Shown: positions 20,427-46,916 of the stretch, piece by piece
Position numbering within the stretch: position 1 is the first letter of the stretch
Layout of the letters: each line of letters begins with the position of its first letter
From: Candidatus Babeliales bacterium
GTDB taxonomy: Bacteria; Babelota; Babeliae; Babelales; RVW-14
Direction: 5' to 3'
Length of the DNA: 64,000 nucleotides
Assembly: GCA_019746485.1 (NCBI GenBank)
Contig: JAIERW010000005.1
Coordinates: forward strand, 15,078 to 79,077
Program-made: the position numbers and the translations under genes
Notes under the pieces: model-generated
What the model saw: the letters and a program-made list of their open reading frames with translations, nothing else
The model's database searches: none
Told to the model about the DNA's origin: nothing

Positions 20427-20470
20427 ACGATAAGCAACTTTTGACACACGCAGTATTTTTCAAATCTAAT

Positions 20471-20498
20471 CGGGGCAGGTACAACAGTGCCTGCCCCG
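20471..20498 (+). terminator. conserved ggcagg/cctgcc hairpin after family member 1 (no clear T-tract)
   Basis: cggggcagg, 10 nt loop, cctgccccg. The core is the same as the hairpins after members 2 and 3. Confidence 0.4.
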
Positions 20499-20543
20499 AT
20501 TGACATAAACAAGTTAGCTACAAAAAAAATAAGGATACAGACC

Positions 20544-21527
20544 ATGAAGAATTTATCAGCAAAGATTGTGCTCTTAAGCATAATCGCACTCTCATTGCCA
20601 ACAGCGCATTCAAAAGATATGCCAACCCGCTTGGCCACAACCGATCGTCAAATTATCAATAACAATCTTCAAATTGGTAAAAACGACACCGACAAGACCA
20701 GAAGAGATTTAGAAGTTACACGCGAAACGTTTTTGCGTAAAAACCTGGTAGTTGGCAGTGGCAGTAATTTGGACGAACAAGGCAACAGAAATTGTGGATG
20801 CAACCGAACCATTGGCACCTATGATTTTAATCCCAATACCCAGCTTTTGTGCATAGAATTTTGCAACAATGACTCAGATAGCAATGGCGCTTGGATGGAT
20901 CTAAATTTCTGTGGCAAAGCAGTACCAAGAGATCAACAAGAAGAACTTGAATCAATTATTCCTATTTCTTCTACCTACACCGGCCTCTTTGTGTCAAGCA
21001 GCGATCCTGAAGACAACAGTGGTCTCTGGGCAAACTCCACCGTTATTCGTGACGACCAAGGCAATGACAACGGCCCAAGTGGCACCAGCTTATACAATTT
21101 TCGTTTTATAGAAGACTTATATCCTTATAAAACAGGACCATGCGTAGATAGCACCAAGGTATACGTTGGCATTTACGACAATGATGAAAACGACAAGGCA
21201 TTTTATCTTCAAAATGAATATGACTACGTTTTTCAAGAAGGCTGTCTGTTTGCCGACGTTAAATCTTGTAATATTAAGCACGTAAGCGTTGTCGATATTC
21301 CACAAGAATTTTTTACATTTGATCAAATTCTTCAAGACAAAATCGCATACATTGTGTGCAGCGAACAAAATAATGTTTTCCAAGTTTTTGGCGTTGCACA
21401 TTACATAGCAATCACCGCAGGCCTTGAAGCCGCACTAACAGCACTTCTTAATGGCAATGAGTCAGAAGTAGAACAAGCTTGCACTCAAATTTACGGCATT
21501 TGGCTTAATTTGTATGTTTGTGATTAA
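20544..21527 (+). CDS. secreted cysteine-rich protein, family member 2
   Basis: Start at the ATG at 20544 (RBS aagga, MKNLSAKIVLLSIIALSLPTAHS). Blocks TRLATTDRQIINNNLQIGKND..RRDLEVTRETF, NCGCNRT, FNPNTQLLCIEFCNNDSDSNGAW, NFCGK, LWANSTVIRDDQGNDN and GCLFADVKSCNIKHVSVVDIPQ. Confidence 0.8.
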   Translation: MKNLSAKIVLLSIIALSLPTAHSKDMPTRLATTDRQIINNNLQIGKNDTDKTRRDLEVTRETFLRKNLVVGSGSNLDEQGNRNCGCNRTIGTYDFNPNTQLLCIEFCNNDSDSNGAWMDLNFCGKAVPRDQQEELESIIPISSTYTGLFVSSSDPEDNSGLWANSTVIRDDQGNDNGPSGTSLYNFRFIEDLYPYKTGPCVDSTKVYVGIYDNDENDKAFYLQNEYDYVFQEGCLFADVKSCNIKHVSVVDIPQEFFTFDQILQDKIAYIVCSEQNNVFQVFGVAHYIAITAGLEAALTALLNGNESEVEQACTQIYGIWLNLYVCD

Positions 21528-21569
21528 TTCGTTGCAACTAAAACATTGAAATACATAGAAAAAACAAAG

Positions 21570-21598
21570 CGAGGCAGGTGAACACAACACCTGCCTCG
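21570..21598 (+). terminator. hairpin after family member 2
   Basis: cgaggcaggtg, loop aacacaa, cacctgcctcg, then tttact. Confidence 0.5.
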
Positions 21599-21624
21599 TT
21601 TACTATCCACAAGGACACATGCTT

Positions 21625-22614
21625 ATGAAAACTCTCTATGCAAAGATTGTGCTTTTAAGCATAATCACCTTAACTTTCACCGTAGCCCACGCAGAAGAAA
21701 GTATTACACGTCTCTCCCCAACCAACCGTCAAATCATAGAAAAAAACGTTCAAATTGGCCAAAACGACAAAAATGCCAACCGAAGAGATTTAGAAGTTAC
21801 TCGCGAAACATTTTGTCGCAACAAAGTTGTTATTGGGAGCGGCGGTAATATCGGTGATGATAACACCAGAAATTGTGGTTGCTGCCGAACACTCAGCGAA
21901 TTTGATTTTAACCCAAATACCCAACTTTTGTGCATAGAATTTTGTGATACTGACGTAAATAGTAATGGTGCATGGCTTGACATTAACTTCTGTGGTAAGG
22001 CAATCCCACGCAAAAGTCAATGCTATTTAGACCCAACAATACCTATCTCTTCAACTTATACCCGTTTTTTTGTTTCCTGTAGCGATCCTGCAGATGACAG
22101 CTACCTCTGGGCAAATTCTACCGTTATTCGTGACGACCAAGGAAATGATAACTGCCCAGATGGAACCTGCTTGTACAGTTTTCGTGTCATCGCTGCTCAA
22201 TATCCCTACATTCCAACACCAAGTACGCAAAGCACCAAAGTATATATCGGTCTTTATGACAACGACAGCTCAGACATGGCATTTTATTTAAAGAACTGTT
22301 ATGACTACATCTTTCTTAAAGGTTGTCTTTTTGTAGATGCAGTATCTTGTCAAATAAAACACATGAGCATTGTTAACATCCCACAAAATATTTTTGCTTT
22401 TGAGCAAATACTCCAAAATAAGATTATCAGCACCGTTTGCAACCAAGAAGGCAACAACGTCTTTCAAACTTTTGGCGTTGCAAAAAAAATTGCAGAAACT
22501 CAAGGACTTGCAGAAACACTCACGGATCTTCTTAAAGGTTCGCAAACGCAAGTGCAAAACGCGTGTGACCAAATTTTGGCAATCTGGCAACAGCTGTATA
22601 TCGTCATAACATAA
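21625..22614 (+). CDS. secreted cysteine-rich protein, family member 3
   Basis: MKTLYAKIVLLSIITLTFTVAHA. It has the same blocks as member 2 (NCGCCRT, LLCIEFCDTDVNSNGAW, NFCGK, LWANSTVIRDDQGNDNCPDG, GCLFVDAVSCQIKHMSIVNIPQ). The ATG at 21619 is an alternative start. Confidence 0.8.
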   Translation: MKTLYAKIVLLSIITLTFTVAHAEESITRLSPTNRQIIEKNVQIGQNDKNANRRDLEVTRETFCRNKVVIGSGGNIGDDNTRNCGCCRTLSEFDFNPNTQLLCIEFCDTDVNSNGAWLDINFCGKAIPRKSQCYLDPTIPISSTYTRFFVSCSDPADDSYLWANSTVIRDDQGNDNCPDGTCLYSFRVIAAQYPYIPTPSTQSTKVYIGLYDNDSSDMAFYLKNCYDYIFLKGCLFVDAVSCQIKHMSIVNIPQNIFAFEQILQNKIISTVCNQEGNNVFQTFGVAKKIAETQGLAETLTDLLKGSQTQVQNACDQILAIWQQLYIVIT

Positions 22615-22621
22615 AAAAAAT

Positions 22622-22651
22622 TGAGGCAGGTTTTTTAAAAAACCTGCCTCA
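22622..22651. terminator. perfect 30-nt palindromic hairpin after family member 3
   Basis: tgaggcaggtttttt/aaaaaacctgcctca. Confidence 0.55.
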
Positions 22652-22676
22652 GTCAAAATAACAAGGACACATGATT

Positions 22677-23696
22677 ATGAAAACTTTCTATTCAAAGATT
22701 GTGCTTCTTAGCATAATCACGCTCACAGCACCAACCGCACATGCAAAAGATATGCCAACACGCTTGGCCACAACCGACCGTCAAATTATCAACAACAATC
22801 TTCAAATTGGTAAAAATGACAGCGATAAAACAAGAAGAGACTTAGAAGTTACACGCGAAGCATTTTTGCGTAGTAACCTTATTGTAGGCAGTGGCAGCAA
22901 CTTGGACGAACAAGGCAACAGAAACTGCGGATGCAATAGAACTCTTGGGACATTTCCCTTTAACCCAAACACTCAACTTCTTTGCATAGAATTTTGCAAC
23001 AATGACAGCGACAGCAATGGGGCTTGGCTCAACATGACTTTCTGCGGCAAAGTAGCTCCAAGACCCGAAGAAGCGGAAGAAGCGCAAGAGGAACAAGAAG
23101 AACTGGAAGCGCTTATTCCCATATCTTCTACCTACACACGCCTTTTTGTATCCAGTTCCGATGTTACTGACAGCTATCTTTGGGCAAACTCTACCGTTAT
23201 TCGCGATGACCAAGGCAATGATAACTGTCCAAACGGCGCTTGCATAAGTTCTTTTGACTTCATCAATGACCAATATCCCTACATAACAAATACACAAACA
23301 GAAAGCACAAAAATCTATGTTGGCATTTACGATAACAACCAAAACGATTTTGCTTTTTATCTTCAAAACACCTACGACTATCTCTTTACCCAAGGTTGTC
23401 TCTTTGTTGACCAAATATCGTGCAATATTAAAAATATCAAAGTCGTTGATATTCCACAGGATTTTTTCTCTCTTAGCCCAATTTTACGAGAAAAAATCGT
23501 TTCGGTTATTACTGGGCTGGAAGAAAACCACAATGTCTTTCAGATTTTTGGGGTAGCACAACTGATAGCAACGTACCCAGAACTTGCCAACTTACTCACT
23601 GAATTTCTTCTTTCTGAAGATGAAGAACTAATAGAAGAAGTTTGCTTCTTCATTGAGTTAATTTGGTACTATTTATATGTCGCAATGATAATATAA
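22677..23696 (+). CDS. secreted cysteine-rich protein, family member 4 (with acidic EEAEEAQEEQEELE insert)
   Basis: MKTFYSKIVLLSIITLTAPTAHA. The N-terminal roughly 115 aa is nearly identical to member 2 (KDMPTRLATTDRQIINNNLQIGKND..KTRRDLEVTRE). The ATG at 22671 is an alternative start. Confidence 0.8.
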   Translation: MKTFYSKIVLLSIITLTAPTAHAKDMPTRLATTDRQIINNNLQIGKNDSDKTRRDLEVTREAFLRSNLIVGSGSNLDEQGNRNCGCNRTLGTFPFNPNTQLLCIEFCNNDSDSNGAWLNMTFCGKVAPRPEEAEEAQEEQEELEALIPISSTYTRLFVSSSDVTDSYLWANSTVIRDDQGNDNCPNGACISSFDFINDQYPYITNTQTESTKIYVGIYDNNQNDFAFYLQNTYDYLFTQGCLFVDQISCNIKNIKVVDIPQDFFSLSPILREKIVSVITGLEENHNVFQIFGVAQLIATYPELANLLTEFLLSEDEELIEEVCFFIELIWYYLYVAMII

Positions 23697-26215: not shown

Positions 26216-26761
26216 GTTTTATTCTTAATTTTATTAGTTTTAGTAATCAACATACGTTTGAACCCTATGATTTTACAACAATAAAATAGGCTTGTAAATA
26301 CGAGAAAAAAACGACTAGATCGACAAAAAGTCACCCCATCTTACAAACAAGCCTGCACCAACAAAGCACAAATAGTATTCTACCTGAAACAAACACCCTT
26401 ATTTATACGAAAAATCAACAACAATCAACAAAATCCCCACTTTTTCCAATTGACTTTATACCCGAGCACTTTATACTGAAACTATCTAAAACATAGGACT
26501 TGTAGGCCCTTTTATTTAATTTCACCACCATAATGAAGTTTAATAAGTACGATACGTTTAATAAGTACACGGCCATAGCTCTCAGCGGGTGCTCTAATCC
26601 GCCATCACTTTGCACGCCATTATTTCTAGCACAAAAATTTTTTAAATTTCATTTTTCTTTTTTACGAAGTCGGGTATCTTGTTGTTCCCAGCTTTTCTTA
26701 ACAGATAGAAAAGACAGGCGTTACCAAATTATTACCAATAATCCTTTTTTATGGAGTGATC

Positions 26762-28192
26762 ATGCAAGAAAAGCTCTCCGGTAAGTTATATAAGTTATGG
26801 GGCATTAAGCGAGAGTTTCTTCTCAAAATATTGCTACTTTCAGCAACGTACTTCTTTTTAATGGCTTGCCATGTGATTTGGAAGCCACTTAAATACTCGC
26901 TCTTTGGGCAAATTGTTGGCACCAGCTCCGTCCCTTTCGCTAAAATTTCTTCTCTGCTTTTCTTAATTCCTCTGATCTTACTTTACTCCAAACTTGTCGA
27001 CTGGCTCAGACGCCACCATCTCCTCTATTTTTTTACTATATCTCACGCACTTGGCGGTCTATTTTTTTACTACTTCATCTCTCATCCCGTTTACGGCATT
27101 GCAAATACTGACACAGGACCAAGTCGTTATATTGGATGGCTCTTTTATTTCTTTATGGAAAGCTTCGACGCCTTTCTTTCAACAACATTCTGGTCATTTG
27201 CTGACTCAGTAAACAACGCTAATGACGCAAAATATTATTATGGCTTTTTTGTTTCAGGTTCAAAAATTGGTGGCATGCTTACCGCAGCAACATTATACTT
27301 TGTGCTCACGGGCGCAACAACAGAAAGCCAGTTAAGCATTATTCCTAACGCACTTCTGATTGGCAGCTGCATGCTCTTTGCCGCAGCAGCATGTATCTAC
27401 TTTCTCGTCAAAAAAGTTCCTGAAGGCATCATGCACGGCTATGAAAAAGTATATCAACTTGAAAAACATAAAGATGTCGAACACATCCCCACGCCAACGC
27501 GGCTTAAAAGCTTTTTACGCTCAATCACCAGCGCCTTTGATGGCTTAACCATCATGGTAAAGAGTTCTTATGTTATGGGTATTTTTTCACTCGTATTTTT
27601 TTATGAAATTATCATAGCAATTTTTGATTACCTGGTTATGATGCGTGCCGAAAGCGCACATCCTTCAATCGGCTCAATGACGGCTTTTTATGCACTATAT
27701 TTCTTCATCATGAATGGTATTGGCTTGTTGATCAGCTTGTTTGGTACAACCCCATTGTTGCGTATTTTGGGCATTAGAATGTCTCTCTTTGCCTTCCCGC
27801 TTATCTGCCTGATTATGCTCGTAACTACCTTTATATTTCCTCAAGGATGGATTTTGTTTGGTACCTTGATCGGTTTACGCGCCTTTAACTATGCACTCAA
27901 CCACCCAACACGAGAAGTCTTATATATTCCAACCACCAAAGATATCAAGTTTAAAGCAAAAACATGGACCGATGCCTTTGGGTCTCGTATTGCTAAAGGA
28001 TTTGGTTCCTTCTTCAACTTGGCGCTTCAAAGTGTTGCTCCGGCTATTGCCTTATTCTCAAGCATCACATTCAGCCTTGGCTTAACAGGCATCTGGCTGG
28101 TTATTACCTACTTTTTAGGTAAGACATTGCAAAGCGCAATCGATGAAAATCGCATTATCGGCGAAACAGAAGAGTCTAAAACCAATAGGTAG
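26762..28192 (+). CDS. ntt: nucleotide transporter, ATP/ADP translocase (TLC/NTT) family, copy 1
   Basis: About 12 TM segments. FWSFADSVNNANDAKYYYGFFVSGSKIGG resembles the chlamydial/rickettsial FWGFANEIT..EAKRFYALFG.GAN. REVLYIPTTKDIKFKAKTWTDAFGSRIAKGFGS resembles EMAYIPLD.E.K.KGKAAIDVV..R.GKSGGS. The comparison is from memory. Start is the ATG at 26762, with the GTG at 26756 as an alternative. Confidence 0.75.
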   Translation: MQEKLSGKLYKLWGIKREFLLKILLLSATYFFLMACHVIWKPLKYSLFGQIVGTSSVPFAKISSLLFLIPLILLYSKLVDWLRRHHLLYFFTISHALGGLFFYYFISHPVYGIANTDTGPSRYIGWLFYFFMESFDAFLSTTFWSFADSVNNANDAKYYYGFFVSGSKIGGMLTAATLYFVLTGATTESQLSIIPNALLIGSCMLFAAAACIYFLVKKVPEGIMHGYEKVYQLEKHKDVEHIPTPTRLKSFLRSITSAFDGLTIMVKSSYVMGIFSLVFFYEIIIAIFDYLVMMRAESAHPSIGSMTAFYALYFFIMNGIGLLISLFGTTPLLRILGIRMSLFAFPLICLIMLVTTFIFPQGWILFGTLIGLRAFNYALNHPTREVLYIPTTKDIKFKAKTWTDAFGSRIAKGFGSFFNLALQSVAPAIALFSSITFSLGLTGIWLVITYFLGKTLQSAIDENRIIGETEESKTNR

Positions 28193-28222
28193 TAATCAAC
28201 TAAGTACAACAAAAGGAAGAGT

Positions 28223-29617
28223 ATGATTTTTAGATTTGCCAGGCATATTTCACGAACAATGGAAGAAAAATTACAAATAGATTCAAATGAGATAAAAAAA
28301 TTATTTCTTTTGGCGTTTTCATTTTTCTTCATAATAGCGTCATACTCAATTCTTCGCTCACTTAAAACGTCCATCTTTTTAGGGCTTGTAGGCAAAGAAT
28401 ACCAACCAATGACACGCCTTATTGCTATTGTTATTATGTTTCCAGCAATGCTTGGCTACGCCAAACTGGTTGATAAATTTAAACGCGAACAAATTGTTTA
28501 TACCATCATTGGTATTTATGCTGTTGCAAGCCTTGTCTTTGCTGTACTTTTAGCCCATCCCACCATTGGCGTCCAAAACACTTTCACCAGCCCCTACCGC
28601 TTTATTGGCTGGGGTTTTGAAATTTTCATGGATCTTTACTCAGCCCTGGTGGTAAGCACCTTCTGGAGCTTTGTTAACTCAATCTGCACGCCAATGTTTG
28701 CGGAAAAAGGATACGGCACCATTGTAGCTATCTCTAAAATAGGAGGCATTGCTGCAGCTCTTATTGGCTTATTAATAACAAGATCTGGCCTTGAAACATC
28801 ATCATCAATTCCACTTCTTACCGCAAGCGCTGGCATTTTCTTATTCCTTTCAATTCTCTTGGTACGTTCTATTATCAAAACCATCCCAGATTCATATTTG
28901 CACGGTTATCAAGCAGCGTTTGTTGAAGAGAAGAAGGCTGAAAAGCAACTTAAAAAACCGGGTATCTTTGAAGGCTTACGCTTGATGCTTACCGAGCCGT
29001 ATGTTCTTGGAATTTTCGGCATTTTGTACAGCATGGAAATTATTTCAATCATTTTTGACTATCAAATGCAAGTATTAATGTCTGTTGAAATGAACAACCA
29101 CATTGGCTCTATGAGCTCATTTATGTTTATTTATACAGCAACATTTCAAGTCTGCACCTTCTTATTTGCATTTTTGGGCACCTCAACGTTGTTGAAAAAA
29201 ATTGGGGTTCGTGCTTGCTTAATTATCACTCCGCTTGTACTGGGTCTTCTTTCACTCATCATGCTTACCTGGCCATCGCTCTGGATAACCTTTTTCATTT
29301 TGGTTATTTTACGCGCTCTGAACTACGGCTTCAACCAGCCAGTACGCGAAATACTGTATATTCCAACAGTTAAAGATATCCAATTTAAATCAAAAGCTTG
29401 GATCGAGTCGTTTGGTAAAACCTTTTCCAAGGCCTCCGGTTCAGCCTTTAGTTGGATTTCTATAACCACCAACCCGCTCTTGTGCATCCGAACCAACGCT
29501 ATATTTTCCTTTGCCATTAGCGCTTTTTACCTGGTTGTGGTATTTTTCTTGGGCCGACGCTATGCAAAAACAGTTGAAAATAATGAAGTTATCGGCACAA
29601 AGAGATATAAATCTTGA
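28223..29617 (+). CDS. ntt: nucleotide transporter, ATP/ADP translocase (TLC/NTT) family, copy 2
   Basis: A paralog of the previous gene: FWSFVNSICTPMFAEKGYGTIVAISKIGG and REILYIPTVKDIQFKSKAWIESFGKTFSKASGS. About 12 TM segments. Confidence 0.75.
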   Translation: MIFRFARHISRTMEEKLQIDSNEIKKLFLLAFSFFFIIASYSILRSLKTSIFLGLVGKEYQPMTRLIAIVIMFPAMLGYAKLVDKFKREQIVYTIIGIYAVASLVFAVLLAHPTIGVQNTFTSPYRFIGWGFEIFMDLYSALVVSTFWSFVNSICTPMFAEKGYGTIVAISKIGGIAAALIGLLITRSGLETSSSIPLLTASAGIFLFLSILLVRSIIKTIPDSYLHGYQAAFVEEKKAEKQLKKPGIFEGLRLMLTEPYVLGIFGILYSMEIISIIFDYQMQVLMSVEMNNHIGSMSSFMFIYTATFQVCTFLFAFLGTSTLLKKIGVRACLIITPLVLGLLSLIMLTWPSLWITFFILVILRALNYGFNQPVREILYIPTVKDIQFKSKAWIESFGKTFSKASGSAFSWISITTNPLLCIRTNAIFSFAISAFYLVVVFFLGRRYAKTVENNEVIGTKRYKS

Positions 29618-29770: not shown

Positions 29771-30628
29771 ATGAACATCGATTTAAAAGATATGCTCAAA
29801 GCTGGCCTTCATTTTGGTCACAAGACTTCACGTTGGTCGCCAAACATGCGTCCCTACATCTGGGGCTCAAAAAATCACGTACATTTGATTGATATCTCCA
29901 AGACTGCCTTCTTGTTAGAAAAAACAGGCCTTGAGTTGAAAAAACTCGCAGCTGAAGGTGGCACATTCTTGTGGATTGGTACTAAAAAGCCTGCTCAAAA
30001 GATCGTTCAAGAAATTGCAACCAAGTTGAATATGCCTTGGGTTATTCATCGCTGGATCGGCGGCACCTTGAGCAACTTTGATCAAGTTAAAAAAGCTATT
30101 ACACGCCTTCTTCATTTGCGCGATGTTATGGCAAAACCTACTGCTCATTACACAAAAAAAGAACTTGTGATGATCCAAAAGGAAATCGAACGTCTTGAAA
30201 AGAATGTTGGCGGTATTATTGAATTGTCATACCCACCAGCAGGTTTGATTGTTGTTGACGCAGGCAGAGAACAATCTGCAATAAAAGAAGCTTCACGTTT
30301 GGGTATTCCAATCGTATCACTCGTCGACACCAACACAGATCCTTCAGGCGTTAACTTTGTTATTCCTGCAAACGATGACTCACCAAAATCGATTCGTTAT
30401 GTTCTTGAATACTTGCAAGCAAAAGTTGAAGAAGGTATGAAAGAATTTAAAGACAACAAAGGCGCAGAAAAAACTGCTAAAAAAGTAGTTGCTAAAGAAG
30501 TTGCCCCAGTTGTTGAACCGGTAATCATTGAAGCGTTGGCTCTTGAAGAAGGTGACGACATTGTTGGTAACACCGCAAAAGTAGAAGCTATTAAAAAGCC
30601 TCTTTCACGATCACCGATCAAGAAATAA
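29771..30628 (+). CDS. rpsB: 30S ribosomal protein S2
   Basis: LKDMLKAGLHFGHKTSRWSPNMRPYIWGSKNHVHLIDISKT..., VDAGREQSAIKEASRLGIPIVSLVDTNTDPSGVNFVIPANDDS. It has a charged C-terminal extension. Confidence 0.95.
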   Translation: MNIDLKDMLKAGLHFGHKTSRWSPNMRPYIWGSKNHVHLIDISKTAFLLEKTGLELKKLAAEGGTFLWIGTKKPAQKIVQEIATKLNMPWVIHRWIGGTLSNFDQVKKAITRLLHLRDVMAKPTAHYTKKELVMIQKEIERLEKNVGGIIELSYPPAGLIVVDAGREQSAIKEASRLGIPIVSLVDTNTDPSGVNFVIPANDDSPKSIRYVLEYLQAKVEEGMKEFKDNKGAEKTAKKVVAKEVAPVVEPVIIEALALEEGDDIVGNTAKVEAIKKPLSRSPIKK

Positions 30629-30653
30629 CGACCCTGTCTTTGACAAAATATCA

Positions 30654-30715
30654 TCCCGAGTGCCCGGCGTAGTCCTGAGCTTGTCGAAAGACGAAGACTG
30701 GGTGTATCGAGGGAA
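30654..30715. repeat. GC-rich intergenic repeat, long copy, abutting the 5' end of tRNA-Ser
   Basis: tcccgagtgcccg-[gcgtagtcctgagcttgtcgaaagacgaagact]-gggtgtatcgagggaa. Both arms recur without the insert at 40241-40271. Confidence 0.6.
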
Positions 30716-30807
30716 GGAGAGGTGGCTGAGTGGCCGAAAGCGCATGATTGGAAATCATGTATGCCCTGAAAGGGGCATCGAGGGTTCGAATCCCTCTCTC
30801 TCCACCA
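30716..30807 (+). tRNA. tRNA-Ser (GGA), class II with long variable arm, CCA encoded
   Basis: Acceptor ggagagg/tctctcc, anticodon stem-loop catga-ttGGAaa-tcatg, variable arm tatgccctgaaaggggcat, T-arm gagggttcgaatccctc, 3' ACCA. Confidence 0.9.
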
Positions 30808-30945
30808 TACTTCGCCAAGGCTTCGTATGGCACGGCCATTTTCTTTAAAAGTTTTAGAAACGGTAGAACAAAGCGAAGTATGTCCTTCGAAGCTCTGAAA
30901 GAGCGTAGTAGGACAGGCCGGATGGCAGGCCAGTTCTTTTAAATG
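30808..30945. repeat. GC-rich intergenic hairpin-forming elements downstream of tRNA-Ser
   Basis: Inverted repeat atacttcgc ... gcgaagtat (about 30808-30882), then gtcct-tcgaagctctgaaagagcgtag-taggac and ggccggatggcaggcc. It shares ggcttcg and gcgtagt cores with 8986-9077 and 30654-30715. Confidence 0.5.
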
Positions 30946-30991
30946 AAATATACCGCTTTTTGCGCGAATAACGCATAAAGCATAGAAAATT

Positions 30992-31074
30992 GGGACAAAA
31001 TAAGTAGTTTTTGTACACAATCTGTCAGATCCGGAAGGAAGCAGCAGGGGTATGAAAATTCTGTATTTTGTCCC
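30992..31074 (+). ncRNA. ffs: signal recognition particle RNA (small bacterial 4.5S type)
   Basis: Contains the universally conserved domain IV sequence tgtcagatccGGAAggaagcagca (E. coli: GUCAGGUCCGGAAGGAAGCAGC). The terminal arms gggacaaaata / tattttgtccc pair to close the hairpin, and a tttttt run follows. Confidence 0.8.
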
Positions 31075-31229
31075 TTTTTTAACCCATCTTGAAAAATACT
31101 TGACTATTATTAAATATAATCTACAATAAAACCATGGGTGATTCAATTTGAATTTATCATAAATAACTAAAAAATCGCCTTTTTGGAGATTTCTAACTCT
31201 TTTTAAAAAAATAACTGGGAGGTTATATC

Positions 31230-31805
31230 ATGAAAAAGTTACCTAATTTAATGTTAATTATAGGCCTGTTAGCAGGCTCATTGCACGGCGCAGCAACATC
31301 ACCATTTGAACACTACTGTCAGCTTGGAAAAAGCAAAAAAGAAAAATTGTTTCAACTCGCAATTGTAAACCAAGACTACATAGCCAGAAAAATAGTGGCG
31401 TTACAAAACGATACAACAAAAACAATAACAGAGCTCAACGAGGAATACCCAAAACTCAGAAAAGAACAAACGCAAGCAGAAGATATCATTGGATGCTACA
31501 GCAATTGTTCATTTGCTCAATTTATTATAGAAAAAACTCGGTTACAACTAAATTATGCTGATGAACAAAAAGAACCAATGATCCACCTCTTACAACAAAT
31601 CACATTAATAACGAACCATATAAACAAGATAAAATTAGAAATGGCTAAATTAGAATGGTGCGTAAAACCACGCAAGAAATTTGAACGGCCATGGAGAGAT
31701 TATCTTGGAAAAACTCCACGAAAAAGCTCACACCGCAAAGCAGCAATGATCAATCACCACAACAACGCACAGTTAAAAAAGAGGTTATACCATGAAAACA
31801 TTTAA
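31230..31805 (+). CDS. secreted coiled-coil protein, six-gene family member 1
   Basis: RBS gggaggttatatc-ATG. Signal peptide MKKLPNLMLIIGLLAGSLHGAATS. C-terminal basic block CVKPRKKFERPWRDYLGKTPRKSSHRK (31659-31739). Confidence 0.75.
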   Translation: MKKLPNLMLIIGLLAGSLHGAATSPFEHYCQLGKSKKEKLFQLAIVNQDYIARKIVALQNDTTKTITELNEEYPKLRKEQTQAEDIIGCYSNCSFAQFIIEKTRLQLNYADEQKEPMIHLLQQITLITNHINKIKLEMAKLEWCVKPRKKFERPWRDYLGKTPRKSSHRKAAMINHHNNAQLKKRLYHENI

Positions 31806-32688
31806 TTATTTATTGTTAATATTAGGCCTTGCTGCCAGCTCACTCTACGGCGCAGCATCATCATCTGGCCCAAGCACACAAGCTACGAAAAAAATTGAAC
31901 ACTACCAAAAACTTGCACAAGACAAAGATAACAGCTATTTGAAGCTGGCAATCATCGAAAGATTTATAGCTGAAAAAAATATAGTACAACTTTCCTCCCT
32001 CAGAGAAAAAGCAAGTAGCGCAGAAGAGATAACAGAGATCGACACACAATTGAAAAATCTCGAAATGCGAATAACCAAAGCACTAGAAATTATTGAACAC
32101 TATGCCACCTATCCATTTGCTGATCGTGTTTCTAAAACAACCAGATTGATAATACTAAGCACACAAGACCAAGCGAAACCAGAACAAGCCCTGCTTAAAC
32201 ATCATGCAGCAACGGAAGAACGCATAGACAAAATAGCATTGGAAATGGCCGAGTTAACCCGAAGCACAGGCTTGGGAATGATCCCGCGTCTAAAATTTGA
32301 AAGGCGCTGGAGAATCTATCTTGGAAAAGCTCCACGAGCTAGTTCAAAACGAAAACCGGTAAGTATCAATAATTGCCATAAAAACTATGAAGCCAACTAC
32401 TTGGCATACGTTCTTTTAAAGGTATTCGTTCTTGAACTAGATCATGAAATAATACGCCAAGATATTATGGATGATGCTGCAGAACAACAACTTAAGGCAA
32501 TATCAAAAGAAATAAAGCGCTTGGAACACTATGCAGAAAAAACAGAGGGCTACTCCTTTCATAAAGAAATAGAGCGCTACGTTGACGACATTATAGAAAA
32601 AAAATACGGACACCTTGAAGGCCAAGAATTAAGAGAAGTAATTCAAGTTGAAGTTGATGCAATCCGGAAAAGACTATCAGCTGATTAA
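31792..32688 (+). CDS. secreted coiled-coil protein, six-gene family member 2
   Basis: aagaggttatacc-ATG. Signal MKTFNYLLLILGLAASSLYGAASSS. Basic block GLGMIPRLKFERRWRIYLGKAPRASSKRK (from 32269) plus an extra roughly 110-aa C-terminal extension. It overlaps member 1 by 14 nt. Confidence 0.75.
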   Translation: MKTFNYLLLILGLAASSLYGAASSSGPSTQATKKIEHYQKLAQDKDNSYLKLAIIERFIAEKNIVQLSSLREKASSAEEITEIDTQLKNLEMRITKALEIIEHYATYPFADRVSKTTRLIILSTQDQAKPEQALLKHHAATEERIDKIALEMAELTRSTGLGMIPRLKFERRWRIYLGKAPRASSKRKPVSINNCHKNYEANYLAYVLLKVFVLELDHEIIRQDIMDDAAEQQLKAISKEIKRLEHYAEKTEGYSFHKEIERYVDDIIEKKYGHLEGQELREVIQVEVDAIRKRLSAD

Positions 32689-32704
32689 AAAAAGAGGTTA
32701 TATC

Positions 32705-33334
32705 ATGAAAAAATTAAATTATTTATTGTTAACATTAGGTCTGGCTGCCAGCTCTCTACGGGGCGCAGCATCATCGTCAAGTTCATCATCATCCTCAAGC
32801 TCGCACGAAGAAGAAAAGCTCAGCAAACAAGAGCTCGAGCAAAGAATGAATGAATATTATGTAACAAAGTTAATTTTCCAAGAAGCTTGGATAGAAAATG
32901 AAGTCCAATATCTTATGAATTTAAAAAAACAAACAAGTGATGCAACAGCACTCGCTAATTTAACCGCGAAAATTCGAGCATACAACACCCAGCGAATAGC
33001 AATAAACAATGCTATAGACAAACACAACAAAGCTTCATTTTTTAAGAAAACCGAAAAAGATATGGAAACAATGATTACTACAATCTTCACCTATGATTCT
33101 TGCCAATTAAAAAAAGCACTTGAACAAAACATACAAGAAGCTTCAGAAAAGCTTGAAGCTACAAAGTTAGCGCTAAAAAGCTTGACAGAACCAATCGAAA
33201 AAACACCAAAACAAAACACCGGATTAGGAATAACACCTCGACCAAAACCATCAAACAAGAAACAACCAGCCCCAAAACCAAAACTTTCTCTTCGTGCAAT
33301 CGCTATGCAAAATTCAGCAAAATTACAAAGCTAA
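32705..33334 (+). CDS. secreted coiled-coil protein, six-gene family member 3 (poly-Ser after signal peptide)
   Basis: aagaggttatatc-ATG at 32705. MKKLNYLLLTLGLAASSLRGAA followed by 11 Ser (32771-32803). Basic tail GLGITPRPKPSNKKQPAPKPK. Confidence 0.75.
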   Translation: MKKLNYLLLTLGLAASSLRGAASSSSSSSSSSSHEEEKLSKQELEQRMNEYYVTKLIFQEAWIENEVQYLMNLKKQTSDATALANLTAKIRAYNTQRIAINNAIDKHNKASFFKKTEKDMETMITTIFTYDSCQLKKALEQNIQEASEKLEATKLALKSLTEPIEKTPKQNTGLGITPRPKPSNKKQPAPKPKLSLRAIAMQNSAKLQS

Positions 33335-33360
33335 AAAAACTTAAAAACCAAGGACAAATC

Positions 33361-33978
33361 ATGAAAAAGTTAAATTATTTATTGTTAACACTAGGCCTGA
33401 TTGCAGGCTCATTACACGGTGCAGCAAGATCAGACTTAGAAAATATTGCAAAACAAACGCAAAGCCCAAGCAAGCAAACGCTCGAAAGCCAACTTCACGA
33501 GTGCAATTTACAGATTTTAATTTTCCAAGAATTCTTATTAGAACAAGAAGTTGCCATGTTCAAATCTTTGCAATCACCAACAACTCCTCCTGACGCACTA
33601 GAACGCATCAAACAAAACATTATACAAATTAACACGCAACGATTTACATTACAACAAGCAATAAAAACCTACAATTCGGCTCCATTTGCCAGCGATATTC
33701 ACACAAGCACAGATATAACAATTCGTGAGTGTAGTGAAGACGAAGATGGAGAAACCCTTGATTATGAAACAACAACAGAAGCAATAAACAAAGAAATCAA
33801 ACAACTCAAAAAAACGGTAGAAAACATACAACTAAGCATGCAGGCAAGCAAAGGGTTAAGCCGAACACCTCGTCAACAATTTGCAACAAATCCAGCACGA
33901 CGCAGACAGACACAAAAATCAGCAGCCGGACCAAAATGGCGTATTGAAGCCCTCAAACAAGATGCCCGCGAAGACTAA
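33361..33978 (+). CDS. secreted coiled-coil protein, six-gene family member 4
   Basis: MKKLNYLLLTLGLIAGSLHGAARS. The first roughly 70 nt are nearly identical to member 3. Basic tail KGLSRTPRQQFATNPARRRQTQKS. Confidence 0.75.
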   Translation: MKKLNYLLLTLGLIAGSLHGAARSDLENIAKQTQSPSKQTLESQLHECNLQILIFQEFLLEQEVAMFKSLQSPTTPPDALERIKQNIIQINTQRFTLQQAIKTYNSAPFASDIHTSTDITIRECSEDEDGETLDYETTTEAINKEIKQLKKTVENIQLSMQASKGLSRTPRQQFATNPARRRQTQKSAAGPKWRIEALKQDARED

Positions 33979-33992
33979 AACGAAAGCTCACC

Positions 33993-34592
33993 ATGAAAAA
34001 AATATACTACGCACTCATGCTTACTTTTATTACCAACAACGCTCACGGTGCTGCCAGCTCAACAGCTGATCGAAAAACTACGCTCGCTGTTACTGATAAA
34101 AAAATTAGCATTATTGGCAATGAAAAAAAGATCATTCTTTTGAGCCACCAGCTAAGTTTTTATGCCGAAGAGCTCCAAAGATATTGCACACAAAAAACAG
34201 CCTTAAACGCTGAGACACAAAAATTAAGTCAAGATGCCGACCAAATTGCTCTTGCACTGTCATTAAACCCGCATGATACAAGCTTAGAAACACAACTGCA
34301 AGAAGCTGAAAAAGCAATAAGCGAAAAAAGCGGTGTAACGATAGAATTAATGTTTGAAAATATGATCATTGAAGAAGAGTGCCAAACAACTGCAAAAAAA
34401 CTTAAAGAGCATCAAAAAAGACGTCCAACTTTGGGCACCATCGACAGCATAGTCAAAGCAACGAAACAAGCAAGAATGGAACTTGAAAGAGACAATATTA
34501 CTCATGAAAAATTAGAACAATTCTATCGCAAAAAATTAGACAAAATAAAGCAAGCACGTCTAGCAGAATTCGATGAAGAAGAGGACAACTAA
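33993..34592 (+). CDS. secreted coiled-coil protein, six-gene family member 5
   Basis: MKKIYYALMLTFITNNAHGAASS. Coiled-coil body with an acidic C-terminus FDEEEDN. Confidence 0.7.
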   Translation: MKKIYYALMLTFITNNAHGAASSTADRKTTLAVTDKKISIIGNEKKIILLSHQLSFYAEELQRYCTQKTALNAETQKLSQDADQIALALSLNPHDTSLETQLQEAEKAISEKSGVTIELMFENMIIEEECQTTAKKLKEHQKRRPTLGTIDSIVKATKQARMELERDNITHEKLEQFYRKKLDKIKQARLAEFDEEEDN

Positions 34593-34605
34593 AAAAGAGG
34601 TTATC

Positions 34606-35628
34606 ATGAAAAAAATATATTACGCACTACTCATGCTCAGCTTTATTGCTGGCAACGCTCACGCAGCCGCAGGCTCACCACAAGAAAACACAAGCTCAAA
34701 ACAAGATCGGCTCGAACGCAGAGAAGCAATTAAAGCAAGCCTGCACCATCCTAATCGTAAGCTGCGCCAAGACATAAACTTACGCGTTATTCTTGGGCAC
34801 AAAGCCGTAGAGCCAACCATAAAAATCGTAGACAACGAAAAAATGATCATTATATTAGGCCACAAACGTAAACTTTATCGCAGTCAAATTAGAGAATATC
34901 GTCACCAAGAAAAACAATTGGCTGACAAAATAGAAAAATTAAGACAAAAAATTTCCGAACTCAAAAAAGAAAAATCATCAAACAAATCGATCAAAAGACA
35001 AATAAAAAACCTGGTAGAGCGAATACGCATAAAAAACAACCAAGCATACAATGTATCCATTGATAAAATGACGCTAAAAAGTACGCTTACCTACATTAAT
35101 AATAAACTTGATGCCCTCATTGCTGAAAGAAGTAGTTACCATGCAAATCCCATGGCTCAACAAGCCAAAGACAAGGCACACCAAGAATTTGTAGAAAGCA
35201 GAATTATTGGTCACGAATTACGCTGCATTTACTTTGATAAATTAGCAAGAGCAAAGCGTGCAGAACTTGCAATGATAAATGATGAGAAAAGCCCATTTGC
35301 AATGGCAAGCTACGAGCCTCAAAGACAATCTCTTTTGGGAATTAACCAGCAGCTTTGCCAATTGTGTGTTTCGCGCCAAGAATATGCCCACTACCCAAAC
35401 CTGCAAGCACTCAAAGAAAAAGCATACACAATTGCACAAAAATTAGAACAAGACGCCAGAGCCAGGCACAACAGACTTGCAACGACAAGCATATTATTTT
35501 CTTGGGATGATAGCGATCAAAAAAATAGTGAACGAGAAGAGCGCATGAAAAAGAATAACGAACATCGAATAATGAAAGACTCCTTAAATCTTCTGGAAAG
35601 AGCAGTCAAAGAGTACATGTTCGAATAA
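34606..35628 (+). CDS. secreted coiled-coil protein, six-gene family member 6
   Basis: aagaggttatc-ATG at 34606. MKKIYYALLMLSFIAGNAHAAAGS. It shares IIGNEKKIILLSHQL / VDNEKMIIILGHKRKL with member 5. Confidence 0.7.
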   Translation: MKKIYYALLMLSFIAGNAHAAAGSPQENTSSKQDRLERREAIKASLHHPNRKLRQDINLRVILGHKAVEPTIKIVDNEKMIIILGHKRKLYRSQIREYRHQEKQLADKIEKLRQKISELKKEKSSNKSIKRQIKNLVERIRIKNNQAYNVSIDKMTLKSTLTYINNKLDALIAERSSYHANPMAQQAKDKAHQEFVESRIIGHELRCIYFDKLARAKRAELAMINDEKSPFAMASYEPQRQSLLGINQQLCQLCVSRQEYAHYPNLQALKEKAYTIAQKLEQDARARHNRLATTSILFSWDDSDQKNSEREERMKKNNEHRIMKDSLNLLERAVKEYMFE

Positions 35629-35660
35629 TAAATCTCATACAACCCCCCAGCTTCAAAAAG

Positions 35661-35686
35661 GGCTTTGCACACGCAAGGCCTTTTTT
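35661..35686 (+). terminator. rho-independent terminator after the six-gene family
   Basis: ggctttgc-acac-gcaaggcc followed by tttttt. Confidence 0.7.
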
Positions 35687-35813
35687 GTTGCCTAAAAAAA
35701 GCTCTTTTTGAACTGAATAATGTTGAAACTTGTAACCAATTTTAAATCAGTGTACATTCGTACAATCCCAAAGAAAGCTTCACATTTTAAAGAATCTATG
35801 GTGGTAATACGGT

Positions 35814-44751: not shown

Positions 44752-46833
44752 GTGATGAAGTTTATAAAAAGTACGTTACTTTTTTTGATTACACTTGGTT
44801 TGCATAGCTCTTGCGGCGCAAGTGGCGCGCGAATGAGTGCGCAAAGCATGCGGGGAATGAGCACGCTAGAACAGTACGGCAAACCCTTGCCACCACCACA
44901 CGCAATACCAATGCCACCGCCAGGCGGGCCACCAGCTGTTTCTCAACCGCAAGCAAGACCCACTTCTGAACAAAGCTTTACTCAGCAATTGCAGGCAGTA
45001 AAACGAACTCCTGTAGAACAACCAGTGGGTCAGCCACACGGATTTTTAAGATATACCGACGGTCCTTTACCAGCAACGCCACCAGCCGGCAAACCAAAGG
45101 GATTTCTTGAATATTCAACTCCTAATCAACAAGGCGGCTTGTCCAGATTTGGTACACCGCAAGCTCCACCAGTGCACGCAACGCCAACATCACAGCCCGT
45201 TCAAGCAAAACAAAAAACAAGCATGTGGAGCAACACAAAAACTCAAGCAAAAAGTTTTGGTGCTACACTAAAAAAAGCTTTAGGACTCGGATCTAAAAAA
45301 TCAGCAAAAAAAACTGATCAAGTTTTAACTACGCTCGTTGAACAAAAAACGTCGCCACGCTCTAAGCTCAAAGATATGGCACCTGATTCCATTGCACAGC
45401 AACGCGCACTTACAACGCTACAAATCGTACAACACCCAGGTTCAGACCGACCACTAGATCCGCCAGGAAAACAACGCGATCCAAGTATCATTCGCACACC
45501 AGCAAGCCCGCCAACACCCGAACAGCAAACAAGAATACTCGAACAACAAGTAAGCCAAACGCAAAAAAGAAGTGGAGACCTACTCAAAGAAATGAAAGAA
45601 ATCCAGGCACAACAAAAAAATCCAGACTTAACACCAAAACAACAAGCTAAATTACAGGAGCAGCTTGAACAAAAAACACCAGCTTACGTGCGAGAAATGA
45701 TCAAGTTGGGAAGCTTAGAAAAAGCTCAAAAAACTCAGCAAGCAGAAAGAATTAGCAAAGAAATGGGTGCTTTTCCTTTGCCATCACAGAAACAAACAAC
45801 GCAAGCTCTATTGCCACGACCTGAACCCACAACAACGGTAGCACCTCCAAAACCACCAATGCTTCCAGAACTCTTGCAACCTCGCCCACGCTCACTGCCG
45901 CCAATACCAACTCAGACACCAACTGAGCAGCCAAAGCAACAACAATCAACGCCGCCTCCACCAGTGCCAAGAGATACCCCAAGCAGGCAACCAGAATCAG
46001 AAAAATTTATAGGACCACTACAACCAAAACCAACATTAACAAGATTAAGCGACTTACCAACACCAACGCCACTTGGTCCTAAACCAAGCTCAGTAACCCA
46101 ACAAGAACAACAACCTCCTGCATCACAGCCAACACAAACTCCTCTGCAAAAATTTGGCCCAGCACCACAACCAACACCCCTTCAAATGATGGGACAGGCA
46201 CCGCAACCACCTACATCACAAACACCACCGCCTCCTCCACCAGCACCGGTTGAAACCAAACAATCTGCAAACTTGCTAGAACAAATTCGAGCAGGAGCCC
46301 AGTTGCAAAAAGTTGACCGACCAACTCAGCAAGGGACTCAACCACAATCAACGCCTCCGGCACTAGACCCTGCATTGGTAGCAGGACTACAGGCTCGTAG
46401 AAAGAGCCAAAGATTGGATGTTCAAGATAACCAGGAAATAGCTTCTGCAACCAAAACGCCTCAACCAACAACTACCACACCACCAAGTACAGCAGCAAGC
46501 TTTGGTCAAACACCGCCACCACCAATAGCCGGCACATTTCCGCCAGCTCCACCACCGCCACCGGCACCAAGCCAAGAAAGATCACCACGGCCAGTTAGTT
46601 TAGATACCGGTTTGCAACAACAAATTCAAGCAGGTAATTTTAAACTGAGAACAACTGAACAAAAACCGCGCCCACTCTCAACACCGCCAACAACAGCACC
46701 AAATCTTCAAGGTACACTTGAAGGAGCGCTTGCAGACAGAGGGCTGATACCAGCTGCTCAAACACAAAAAAAACCACCAAAAACAGCAGAAGAAATAGCC
46801 GCAAAACGAGCCAGAAAAGAAGAGTGGCAGTAA
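44752..46833 (+). CDS. secreted Pro/Gln-rich protein with polyproline tracts and two WH2-like / WASP-central-like modules (cluster protein A)
   Basis: GTG at 44752 or ATG at 44755 after RBS aggag. Signal MKFIKSTLLFLITLGLHSSCGA. PPPPPPAP (46225-46248); SANLLEQIRAGAQLQKVD (46264-46317); ALVAGLQARRKSQRLDVQDNQE (46372-46437); PPAPPPPPAP (46540-46569); LQQQIQAGNFKLRTTEQK (46612-46665). It ends KEEWQ*. Confidence 0.8.
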   Translation: MMKFIKSTLLFLITLGLHSSCGASGARMSAQSMRGMSTLEQYGKPLPPPHAIPMPPPGGPPAVSQPQARPTSEQSFTQQLQAVKRTPVEQPVGQPHGFLRYTDGPLPATPPAGKPKGFLEYSTPNQQGGLSRFGTPQAPPVHATPTSQPVQAKQKTSMWSNTKTQAKSFGATLKKALGLGSKKSAKKTDQVLTTLVEQKTSPRSKLKDMAPDSIAQQRALTTLQIVQHPGSDRPLDPPGKQRDPSIIRTPASPPTPEQQTRILEQQVSQTQKRSGDLLKEMKEIQAQQKNPDLTPKQQAKLQEQLEQKTPAYVREMIKLGSLEKAQKTQQAERISKEMGAFPLPSQKQTTQALLPRPEPTTTVAPPKPPMLPELLQPRPRSLPPIPTQTPTEQPKQQQSTPPPPVPRDTPSRQPESEKFIGPLQPKPTLTRLSDLPTPTPLGPKPSSVTQQEQQPPASQPTQTPLQKFGPAPQPTPLQMMGQAPQPPTSQTPPPPPPAPVETKQSANLLEQIRAGAQLQKVDRPTQQGTQPQSTPPALDPALVAGLQARRKSQRLDVQDNQEIASATKTPQPTTTTPPSTAASFGQTPPPPIAGTFPPAPPPPPAPSQERSPRPVSLDTGLQQQIQAGNFKLRTTEQKPRPLSTPPTTAPNLQGTLEGALADRGLIPAAQTQKKPPKTAEEIAAKRARKEEWQ

Positions 46834-46865
46834 AACTAACGTAAACAAAGCAAAAAAAACTATGA

Positions 46866-46892
46866 GGGGATGCATATTGGCATCCCCTTTTT
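46866..46892 (+). terminator. rho-independent terminator after protein A
   Basis: ggggatgc-atattg-gcatcccc followed by ttttt. Confidence 0.85.
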
Positions 46893-46916
46893 CATTAAAG
46901 AAGTTTCCTCAAACCA

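Follow-up and report, generated by a model that had tools for sequence, protein, structure and literature searches.

A six-gene array of predicted Sec-exported orphan proteins with recombining 5' ends in a Candidatus Babeliales genome

Six consecutive genes in a MAG of Candidatus Babeliales (Dependentiae/TM6), an obligate intracellular parasite of protists, begin with near-identical leader peptides and are all (6/6) annotated by NCBI as "hypothetical protein", which raises the question of what these proteins do and how their 5' ends came to be so alike. The Dependentiae are widespread, almost uncultured protist parasites, and their host-manipulation proteins are essentially uncharacterised. 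The six consecutive plus-strand ORFs reported in an earlier note on this DNA were all found at 31230-35628 of the window (the whole 64,000-nucleotide stretch analysed) and are genuine genes; they are listed here with the elements bordering them.

30989-31080, SRP RNA gene (ffs)
31100..31127, + strand, promoter-like site (TTGACT-16 nt-TACAAT; consensus match, 10/12 hexamer positions)
31230-31805, + strand, m1 (191 aa; K2X40_01670, MBX9830639.1): leader, helical domain, basic motif
31792-32688, + strand, m2 (298 aa; K2X40_01675): leader, helical bundle, basic linker, second helical domain
32705-33334, + strand, m3 (209 aa; K2X40_01680): leader, 11-Ser run, helical domain, degenerate basic tail
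33361-33978, + strand, m4 (205 aa; K2X40_01685): leader, helical domain, degenerate basic tail
33993-34592, + strand, m5 (199 aa; K2X40_01690): second family; acidic, all-helical
34606-35628, + strand, m6 (340 aa; K2X40_01695): second family; long helices
35654..35688, + strand, predicted intrinsic terminator (hairpin, GC-rich core, ACAC loop, U6 tail)

The claimed spacing was borne out, with a 14-nt overlap between m1 and m2 and later gaps of 16, 26, 14 and 13 nt, and so was the single terminator: a strong hairpin with a U-run lies at 35654-35688 (dG -25.1 kcal/mol, z -5.65; 0/200 shuffles fold equally well), and no plus-strand terminator-like sites were found inside the six-gene array. The promoter-like site stands 100 nt upstream of m1, directly past the SRP RNA gene, and identical hexamers with identical spacing occur at the syntenic position in a sister MAG (L001). 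The array has rpsB, tRNA-Ser, ffs and dnaX as neighbours, and two TLC ATP/ADP translocase genes adjoin the operon. A foreign origin by composition was rejected (array GC 0.35-0.39, slightly lower than the 0.37-0.43 of the neighbours), and the strong A>T skew of the array reflects its K/E/Q/N-rich coding.

The leader peptides read as the earlier note wrote them. The "gaggttat...ATG" start context that it gave to all six genes was found at m1, m2, m3 and m6 and is absent from m4 (ccaaggacaaatcATG), where the ribosome-binding site deviates (AAGGA), and from m5 (cgaaagctcaccATG), where it is weak. By inspection and a simple hydropathy filter, all six leaders have the n-, h- and c-regions of Sec / signal peptidase I substrates, with a basic n-region (MK in m2, MKK in the other five), a core of ~12-15 hydrophobic residues and then a small-residue c-region, (L/A)(H/Y/R)(G/A)AA (e.g. 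HGAA/YGAA), and this leader type is unique to the cluster among ~30 signal-like N-termini in the window. Cleavage by signal peptidase I would be expected from these features; processing as lipoproteins by signal peptidase II was rejected, as no Cys occurs before residue 30 in any of the proteins and there is no lipobox.

The description of the genes as six paralogs holds within m1-m4 and within m5-m6, and is overstated as one family across the two groups. Members m1-m4 are all related to one another (E 1e-11 to 1e-30; m1 vs m2, 36% identity, E 1e-30; m3 vs m4, 34%, E 2e-25), with the pair m1-m3 aligning over the leader only (E 8e-5), and m5 is related to m6 (27% identity, E 2e-17), while alignment of m1-m4 with m5-m6 is limited to the leader (hhalign columns 1-49). 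The earlier note recognised no known family and called for Foldseek and profile searches; these were run, and agree with it. Pfam, NCBIfam and PHROGs gave nothing at or near curated cut-offs for the six proteins, PDB sequence-profile searches with both families and the motif peptide gave just designed helical proteins or chance matches, and no Foldseek match in the PDB reached E <0.1 (TM <=0.23). When 1.84 billion representative proteins were searched exhaustively with a HMMER profile, five m1-m4 family members appeared, in two genomes only, the present MAG and one sister MAG; word-based protein searches, for which m2, m6 and the family profile served as queries, recovered only the queries themselves and the sister genome. 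Nothing was confirmed in a genome-contig scan seeded on the family alignment, the pattern of which covered the leader alone, and there was no match in a metagenome scan for the m5/m6 family or in an exact look-up of the window's rpsB for further strains. On the sequences searched, m1-m4 and m5-m6 are thus two lineage-restricted orphan families.

As had been claimed, the 5' ends of m1-m4 are much more conserved than the gene bodies, nucleotide identities among the four being 71-85% in the leader-coding parts and 41-55% in the mature parts. A 91-nt direct repeat (73-87% identity) spans all four of these 5' ends.

31213..31303, + strand, 91-nt 5' repeat copy 1 (ribosome-binding site and leader-peptide coding)
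31775-31865, 32688-32778 and 33344-33434, the other copies of the 91-nt repeat

As a control, secreted paralogs of another tandem family nearby (19464-23696) were compared, and these lack the leader excess.

The syntenic locus of the sister genome carries four genes (A, B, C and D) against the six here. Two of the four, A and B, are leader/body chimeras with junctions within the leader-coding segment, in keeping with the recombination at the 5' ends that the earlier note had proposed. In gene A the upstream region and leader are those of m1 and the body is that of m2, with a breakpoint (alignment columns 187-193) that maps to the 3' end of the 91-nt repeat, at GCAGCA(A/T)CATC; a maximum chi-square test on this gene, answering the note's call for a recombination test, was significant (36.7, permutation p 0.0005). 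Gene B consists of the m3 upstream region plus ~35 nt, followed by m4-like sequence, and because the mature part of B is only 45% identical to that of m4 the history must be more complex than two simple deletions. Independent Logan assemblies contain both the six-gene and the four-gene arrangement at 100% identity; the m1/m2 junction was found at 100% identity in L009, the m3 junctions were reproduced in L007 and m4 was found in three assemblies. Comparison of the two loci indicates that homologous recombination in the shared 5' segment altered the array between the two genomes. With the family present in just two genomes, it can be said only tentatively which way the copy number changed, whether by deletion in the sister or by duplication here.

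The array resembles the vsp/vpma genes of Mycoplasma, a tandem family with conserved 5' UTR and signal-peptide coding sequences, recombination at the 5' end and mature parts unrelated to one another, although the vsp/vpma products, unlike those of the array, are lipoproteins (AAKC lipobox) with internal repeats, and a Xer-type recombinase moves their single promoter (PMC2268961). Could the array be a surface-antigen or adhesin variation system of this type, in which the conserved 5' UTR and leader permit swapping or switching of alternative mature parts? The conserved ribosome-binding site and leader, the divergent mature parts and the junctions in the leader do match that layout (PMC2268961). 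We consider it highly improbable, however, as the six proteins have neither a lipobox nor a Cys at +1, no site-specific recombinase adjoins the array, no internal tandem repeats scoring >47 were found in it, and in place of an inverting promoter there are co-oriented genes with their own starts, one promoter-like site and one terminator. A parasite of protists, moreover, meets no adaptive immunity.

Alternatively, some members, notably m1, may be functionless decaying duplicates whose conserved 5' ends reflect recent duplication. In agreement with this, m1 is truncated (it has no C-terminal domain, and its final 11 codons run through the m2 ribosome-binding site and start), the sister genome lacks an ortholog of m1, and the dN/dS of m1 against A, 0.62, is the cluster maximum. 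We nevertheless regard decay as very unlikely. Every ORF is intact, and the independent assemblies, which cover m1, m4 and m6 along with portions of m2, m3 and m5, show the same or almost the same sequence there, while the basic motif of m1, described below, shows 65-67% identity compared to 25-45% elsewhere in the protein. Synonymous sites have also reached saturation in the mature parts of the paralogs (pS 0.56-0.68) but not in the leaders, a pattern that a single recent duplication is insufficient to explain.

Evolutionary rates set the cluster apart from its surroundings, with dN/dS of 0.30-0.62 compared to 0.02-0.17 in 11 flanking genes, 3-20 times the neighbouring values. The orthologous pairs gave 0.35 for m2 and A (74% identity), 0.32 for m5 and C (71%) and 0.33 for m6 and D (79%). 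Positive selection was rejected, windowed dN/dS exceeding 1 only in a few small, non-significant windows, and these substitution patterns indicate that the six genes are under purifying but relaxed selection. Since dN/dS is below 1 in every gene, relaxed constraint and host-driven diversification account for the rates equally well.

AlphaFold2 predicted all-alpha helical bundles with long helices of 45-54 residues. In m2 (helical bundle 29-159, basic linker ~158-196, second helical domain 195-297) pLDDT was ~90 over residues 40-150, ~40 over 160-196 and 70-80 in the C-terminal domain; the m6 model is confident for residues 70-190 only. The coiled coils proposed for the mature parts are only partly supported: the models are all-helical, but a crude ad hoc heptad filter gave just one or two segments of 28-36 residues per protein in 5/6 proteins and none in m3, and these exceeded shuffles (5%) only in m4, m5 and m6. 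Signal peptide, length of ~170-200 aa, helical arms and, in m1, m3 and m6 (pI 9.8 in m6), a basic pI recall Skp/OmpH, from which the acidic m4 and m5 differ. Skp/OmpH itself (PF03938) was rejected, with no Pfam match at E <=1, none in NCBIfam and no Skp among the Foldseek PDB matches.

It is possible, though we rather doubt it, that m1-m6 are resident periplasmic or cell-envelope proteins (helical chaperone-like or tethering) of a small-population endosymbiont, evolving fast from weak constraint, and that the basic motif binds peptidoglycan, LPS or the inner leaflet of the outer membrane. In favour of this, no targeting signal other than the Sec leader was seen, the operon keeps its syntenic place among housekeeping genes in the two genomes, m5 and m6 are kept one-to-one at 71-79% identity, dN/dS stays below 1 throughout, and basic, helical, signal-bearing periplasmic proteins such as Skp do exist. 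Restriction to two genomes would, however, be unusual for envelope housekeeping proteins, copy number varies between close relatives, dN/dS is far above that of the neighbouring genes, and no OmpH/Skp or other envelope family, nor any fold, was matched.

The basic motifs, like the 11-Ser run of m3 (encoded by mixed codons: TCA, TCG, AGT, TCC, AGC), read exactly as the earlier note quoted them.

31659..31739, + strand, m1 basic motif CVKPRKKFERPWRDYLGKTPRKSSHRK (residues 144-170; net charge +9 over 25 aa)
32263..32358, + strand, m2 basic motif STGLGMIPRLKFERRWRIYLGKAPRASSKRKP (residues 158-189)

The segment encoding the motif is a 78-nt repeat common to m1 and m2 (76% identity), the module having the consensus GLGxxPRxKFERxWRxYLGKxPRxSSxRK, in which the KFERxWRxYLGK block is the best-conserved segment of m1/m2; the degenerate basic tails are TGLGITPRPKPSNKK in m3 and KGLSRTPRQQF..ARRRQTQK in m4. 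Between m2 and its ortholog A the motif is the most conserved segment (pN 0.06, lowest in the gene), and 20/20 residues are kept across RRWRIYLGKAPRASSKRKPV; the earlier note had said that lack of conservation in orthologs would count against its reading, and this objection therefore falls away. AlphaFold2 gave a disordered basic linker in m2 with a short helix at 168-177. A loose bipartite NLS consensus ((K/R)(K/R)-x10-12-(>=3 K/R in 5)) matches within the motif in m1, m2, A and B, but not in m3 or m4, and matches 6/38 unrelated window ORFs too, so that the nuclear-localisation or nucleic-acid-binding reading suggested for this block is weakly supported by its sequence. Scanning genome and metagenome contig collections with a degenerate DNA pattern encoding KFERxWRxYLGK yielded 0 matches in each, zeros that are weak evidence since the collections evidently lack both MAGs, which were themselves unmatched. 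A KFERQ-like (Hsc70 / chaperone-mediated autophagy) motif was rejected, as the window copies (KKFERP, LKFERR) have no flanking Q; QKFER occurs in sister gene A only.

A Sec leader alone brings a protein no further than the periplasm. The reading that we favour, with slightly better than even confidence, is that m1-m6 are Sec-exported host-interface (effector-like) proteins encoded in a recombination-prone array. The non-lipoprotein, all-alpha proteins would enter the periplasm through Sec, and the mature proteins might leave it by routes described for Dependentiae, namely the type II secretion machinery or outer-membrane vesicles; in TM6, type II secretion components are conserved, with two gspD copies (PMC4776705). 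At the host interface they could act as effector-like binding proteins, with the elongated helical bundle as scaffold and, in m1/m2, the conserved, predicted disordered Arg/Lys/aromatic module contacting an anionic or karyopherin-like host partner, candidates being nucleic acid, acidic lipid or importin. The position of the operon among the housekeeping genes rpsB, ffs and dnaX counts against a host-interface role.

The closest parallel is with the secreted ORFans of the Dependentiae member Chromulinavorax destructans, in which signal peptides occur on 44% of CDS and ORFans are over-represented among the secreted proteins (PMC6561590). Phylum, lifestyle, Sec signal peptide, lack of recognisable domains and a presumed host-manipulation role are common to both, while the m1-m4 family differs in having no sequence relatives beyond two MAGs, and we found no description of the array structure, leader homogenisation or basic motif in the literature on these ORFans. 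A helical scaffold, a short basic linear motif (loosely fitting the bipartite NLS pattern in m1 and m2) and an intracellular lifestyle also recall the alpha-helical or coiled-coil effectors and nucleomodulins of Legionella, Chlamydia and Coxiella, for which a review is available (PMC7819608). Those effectors carry type III/IV secretion signals in contrast to the Sec leaders here, with no homology, and the NLS pattern is unspecific. A bolder proposal, which we judge unlikely, is that m1/m2 are a new class of Sec/T2SS-delivered Dependentiae effectors with the motif as a eukaryote-directed import/RNA-binding SLiM and the leader as a recombination cassette; the motif would then serve nuclear or nucleolar import, or RNA binding, and through the cassette the parasite could shuffle, duplicate or delete its effector bodies while remaining able to export them.

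Fast-evolving tandem arrays of secreted orphans with recombining leaders are already familiar from other host-associated bacteria, and therefore the advance is incremental unless a host target is demonstrated. The locus exemplifies a conserved export leader as a recombination substrate for secreted-gene gain and loss, and it offers a compact set of effector candidates with a sharply conserved linear motif and both arrangements independently assembled. Many other signal-bearing ORFs without Pfam families are present in the same window.

Genes m1 to m6, which encode predicted secreted proteins, form a compact array flanked upstream by rpsB, a tRNA-Ser gene (30716-30807) and an SRP RNA gene (30989-31080) and downstream by dnaX (from 35814); m1 and m2 overlap by 14 nt and the following gaps are 16, 26, 14 and 13 nt. 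The sole related genome was the Babeliales MAG GCA_019749895.1 (the sister genome, locus L001), in which the flanks are syntenic on both sides at ~87% nucleotide identity. The features of the array are as follows.

31100-31127, sigma-70-like site TTGACT-16-TACAAT, present in the sister genome too
31230-31805, + strand, m1, ORF of 191 aa
31792-32688, + strand, m2, ORF of 298 aa
32705-33334, + strand, m3, ORF of 209 aa
33361-33978, + strand, m4, ORF of 205 aa
33993-34592, + strand, m5, ORF of 199 aa
34606-35628, + strand, m6, ORF of 340 aa
35654-35688, strong hairpin with U-run, 3' of m6 (dG -25.1 kcal/mol, z -5.65)

No terminator-like sites were found within the array on the + strand, which agrees with the single terminator after six genes proposed in the earlier note, and one operon would be the simplest reading. 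The proteins are deposited as MBX9830639.1 to MBX9830644.1, with m2 and m6 identical to K2X40_01675 and K2X40_01695 (“hypothetical protein”, Candidatus Babeliales MAG). Babeliales are placed in Candidatus Babelota (Dependentiae/TM6), whose members parasitise protists as obligate intracellular bacteria. Just upstream of the array (26756-29617) are two tandem TLC-family ATP/ADP translocases (478 and 464 aa, 93.5% and 97.8% identical to their sister-genome counterparts); such translocases are a hallmark of energy parasitism and the pair fits with a parasitic intracellular lifestyle.

The locus encodes two orphan protein families that are new. Comparison of m1-m6 with Pfam, NCBIfam and PHROG gave nothing near a family threshold, word-indexed queries (m2, m6 and the family profile) against 5.8 billion clusters returned only themselves and the sister genome, and cluster look-ups among 15 billion sequences gave no third variant. 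When 1.84 billion representative proteins were searched exhaustively with an HMMER profile, exactly five matched (m1, m3, m4 and the sister genes A and B), in keeping with the first reading of the proteins as belonging to no recognised family. For the m5/m6 family, a word-indexed search and a pattern scan confined to JGI metagenomes found nothing beyond the ortholog. The six genes had been described as paralogs, and this holds within m1-m4 (m1-m2 36% identity, E 1e-30; m3-m4 34%, E 2e-25; m2-m3 and m2-m4 ~26%, E 1e-15 to 1e-18; m1-m4 23%, E 1e-11) and within m5-m6 (27%, E 2e-17), but m1-m3, alone among the pairs of the first family, can be aligned only over the leader, the N-terminal signal-peptide-like segment (E 8e-5), and profile-profile comparison of the two families aligned only columns 1-49, essentially the leader. 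A common start context was likewise only partly upheld, as GAGGTTAT(N3)ATG precedes m1, m2 and m3 (3 matches, with 0.01 expected) and m6 has GAGGTTATC-ATG, but m4 (ccaaggacaaatcATG) and m5 (cgaaagctcaccATG) do not share it. The leader pattern MKK(L/I)xYxLL...(H/Y)GAA(S/T)S is specific to the cluster within the window, where ~30 other signal-like N-termini differ from it, and is of the Sec type, not that of a lipoprotein.

The 5' ends of m1-m4 are, as had been claimed, far better conserved than the gene bodies. Codon alignments gave 71-85% nucleotide identity for leaders compared to 41-55% for mature parts, with synonymous differences of 0.20-0.50 and 0.56-0.68 (saturated) respectively, and a repeat finder returned a 91-nt direct repeat (the ribosome-binding site and 24 leader codons, 73-87% identity) at all four 5' ends, together with a 78-nt repeat (76% identity) spanning the basic motif of m1 and m2. 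This leader excess is not general to secreted paralogs of this genome, because three close members of a control tandem family at 19464-23696 showed none (leaders 0.69-0.75, mature parts 0.63-0.72). That second array comprises four secreted orphan paralogs (318-339 aa, without a Pfam family) with leaders of the form MK(T/N)xYAKIVLLSIITLT..AHA followed by TRLxxTDRQII; compared with L001 their dN/dS is 0.10-0.17, leader and mature part being about equally conserved.

The sister array has four genes (A-D) compared to six in the window, and its first two are chimeric, which supports the recombination at 5' ends suggested earlier. The upstream region and leader of gene A are m1-like (90-92% nucleotide identity) while its body is m2-like (82% nucleotide, 75% amino acid identity), with the switch located in GCAGCA(A/T)CATC at the leader end (informative sites 40/44 m1-like, then 11/11 m2-like; maximum chi-square 36.7, permutation p 0.0005). 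Gene B has the m3 upstream region and first ~35 nt of the m3 coding sequence and is then m4-like through the m4 C-terminus, but its centre is strongly diverged from both (45% amino acid identity to m4, 35% to m3), so its history was not one clean event. The other two sister genes, C and D, correspond one-to-one to m5 and m6 as orthologs. An assembly artefact as the source of the four- and six-gene arrangements was ruled out by Logan assemblies of other sequencing runs, one of which (L002) matched L001 at 100% over the entire four-gene array while three matched the window at 99.9-100% (L009, upstream-m1-m2; L007, m2 end-m3-m4-m5; L006, m3-m4-m5-m6-dnaX). The locus is real, well delimited and independently assembled, and its evolutionary mechanism is clear: leader-mediated recombination alters gene number and yields chimeras. 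As pS is higher between m1 and m2 (0.56) than between m2 and A (0.33), the m1/m2 duplication is probably older than the divergence of the two genomes, and deletion between leaders probably produced the sister array, a polarity inferred from two genomes only. Nearby, rpsB (29771-30628) is 99.1% identical in nucleotides to its sister copy (dS 0.038; neighbours 0.35-1.3), suggesting that the two lineages recently underwent homologous exchange here or that the codons are under extreme constraint, and the stretches on both sides of tRNA-Ser (30628-30716 and 30815-30918) do not align with the otherwise syntenic sister locus, indicating small indels or replacements there.

Nei-Gojobori dN/dS between the two genomes was 0.62 for m1/A, 0.35 for m2/A, 0.45 for m3/B, 0.30 for m4/B, 0.32 for m5/C and 0.33 for m6/D, values which mark the genes as real coding sequences, and 0.02-0.17 for 11 flanking genes. 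Constraint on m1-m6 is thus 3-20 times weaker than on their neighbours. Windowed analysis found no significant dN>dS in the cluster; pressure to diversify at a host interface and simple relaxation of constraint would both fit these rates.

The core (S/T)GLGxxPRxKF of the m1-m4 family is lengthened in m1, m2 and A to the basic motif KFERxWRxYLGKxPRxSSxRK (net charge +9 over 25 residues). The motif is kept in ortholog A, where it is the best-conserved segment relative to m2 (20/20 residues, pN 0.06) and the best-conserved part relative to m1 (65-67% amino acid identity, against 25-45% elsewhere), suggesting that it is the functional core of this subfamily. A loose bipartite NLS consensus fits m1, m2, A and B and does not fit m3 or m4, but this is a weak hint of an NLS because 6 of 38 unrelated window ORFs, including Lon, fit it too. 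The motif has an unremarkable hydrophobic moment of 0.47 in m2 and a higher one, 0.66-0.82, in m1. Resemblance to a KFERQ motif was rejected for the window copies, as they have no flanking Q; gene A (L001 10001-10882) has a formally canonical KFERQ-like pentapeptide, QKFER, at residues 162-166, but m1 (KKFER) and m2 (LKFER) do not keep the Q and so the match is probably coincidental.

An AlphaFold2 model of m2 built on a 6-sequence family alignment (mean pLDDT 73) predicts a confident helical bundle at residues 29-159 (pLDDT blocks 85-94; helices 29-73, 77-104, 110-125 and 130-159), with the family-invariant I..Y...PFA at the helix 2/3 kink, then the basic module (160-196, pLDDT about 40, short helix at 168-177) and a second helical domain (195-297, pLDDT 70-80) present only in m2 and A. 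The m6 model was confident only for two long helices within residues 70-190. A Foldseek comparison with PDB structures and viral models gave nothing but helical bundles of a generic or designed kind (E >=0.04, TM <=0.25). The canonical coiled coils predicted earlier find support from a crude heptad test in short segments only; the models support an all-alpha bundle.

The m1-m6 proteins have helical mature parts and elevated rates, with a constrained basic linker in m1 and m2, and their function is inferential. In Chromulinavorax 44% of CDS have signal peptides, the secreted set being enriched both for ORFans and for presumed host-manipulating proteins (PMC6561590), and type II secretion components are conserved across TM6, with gspD in two copies (PMC4776705). 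From this literature we infer that m1-m6 are probably exported effectors with a binding or scaffolding role at the host interface, the basic module perhaps contacting an anionic or karyopherin-like partner; the main rival is a resident periplasmic or envelope role. In gene layout the nearest formal analogue is Mycoplasma vsp/vpma, with conserved 5' UTRs and signal-peptide regions and unrelated mature parts (PMC2268961), but the lipobox, internal repeats and site-specific recombinase which define that system are all absent here. The array is a further case of an established category, secreted orphans of an obligate intracellular bacterium that are arranged in tandem and evolve fast, and its basic motif is amenable to experimental test.

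Elsewhere in the window, GAGGTTAT, the octamer of the ribosome-binding context of the cluster, occurs three times within 53 nt (3695-3747) just upstream of a 931-aa ORF (3770-6565) with MutS domain III/V matches and a signal-like N-terminus. Seven large ORFs in a row (44752-58972, 309-965 aa) lack a Pfam family and have N-termini that look signal-like, and this genome seems rich in secreted orphans, as has been reported for other Dependentiae. A 245-aa protein (332-1069) has a match (E 4e-6) to PF24481, the CT398-like coiled-coil hairpin domain, whose family was originally described from Chlamydia.
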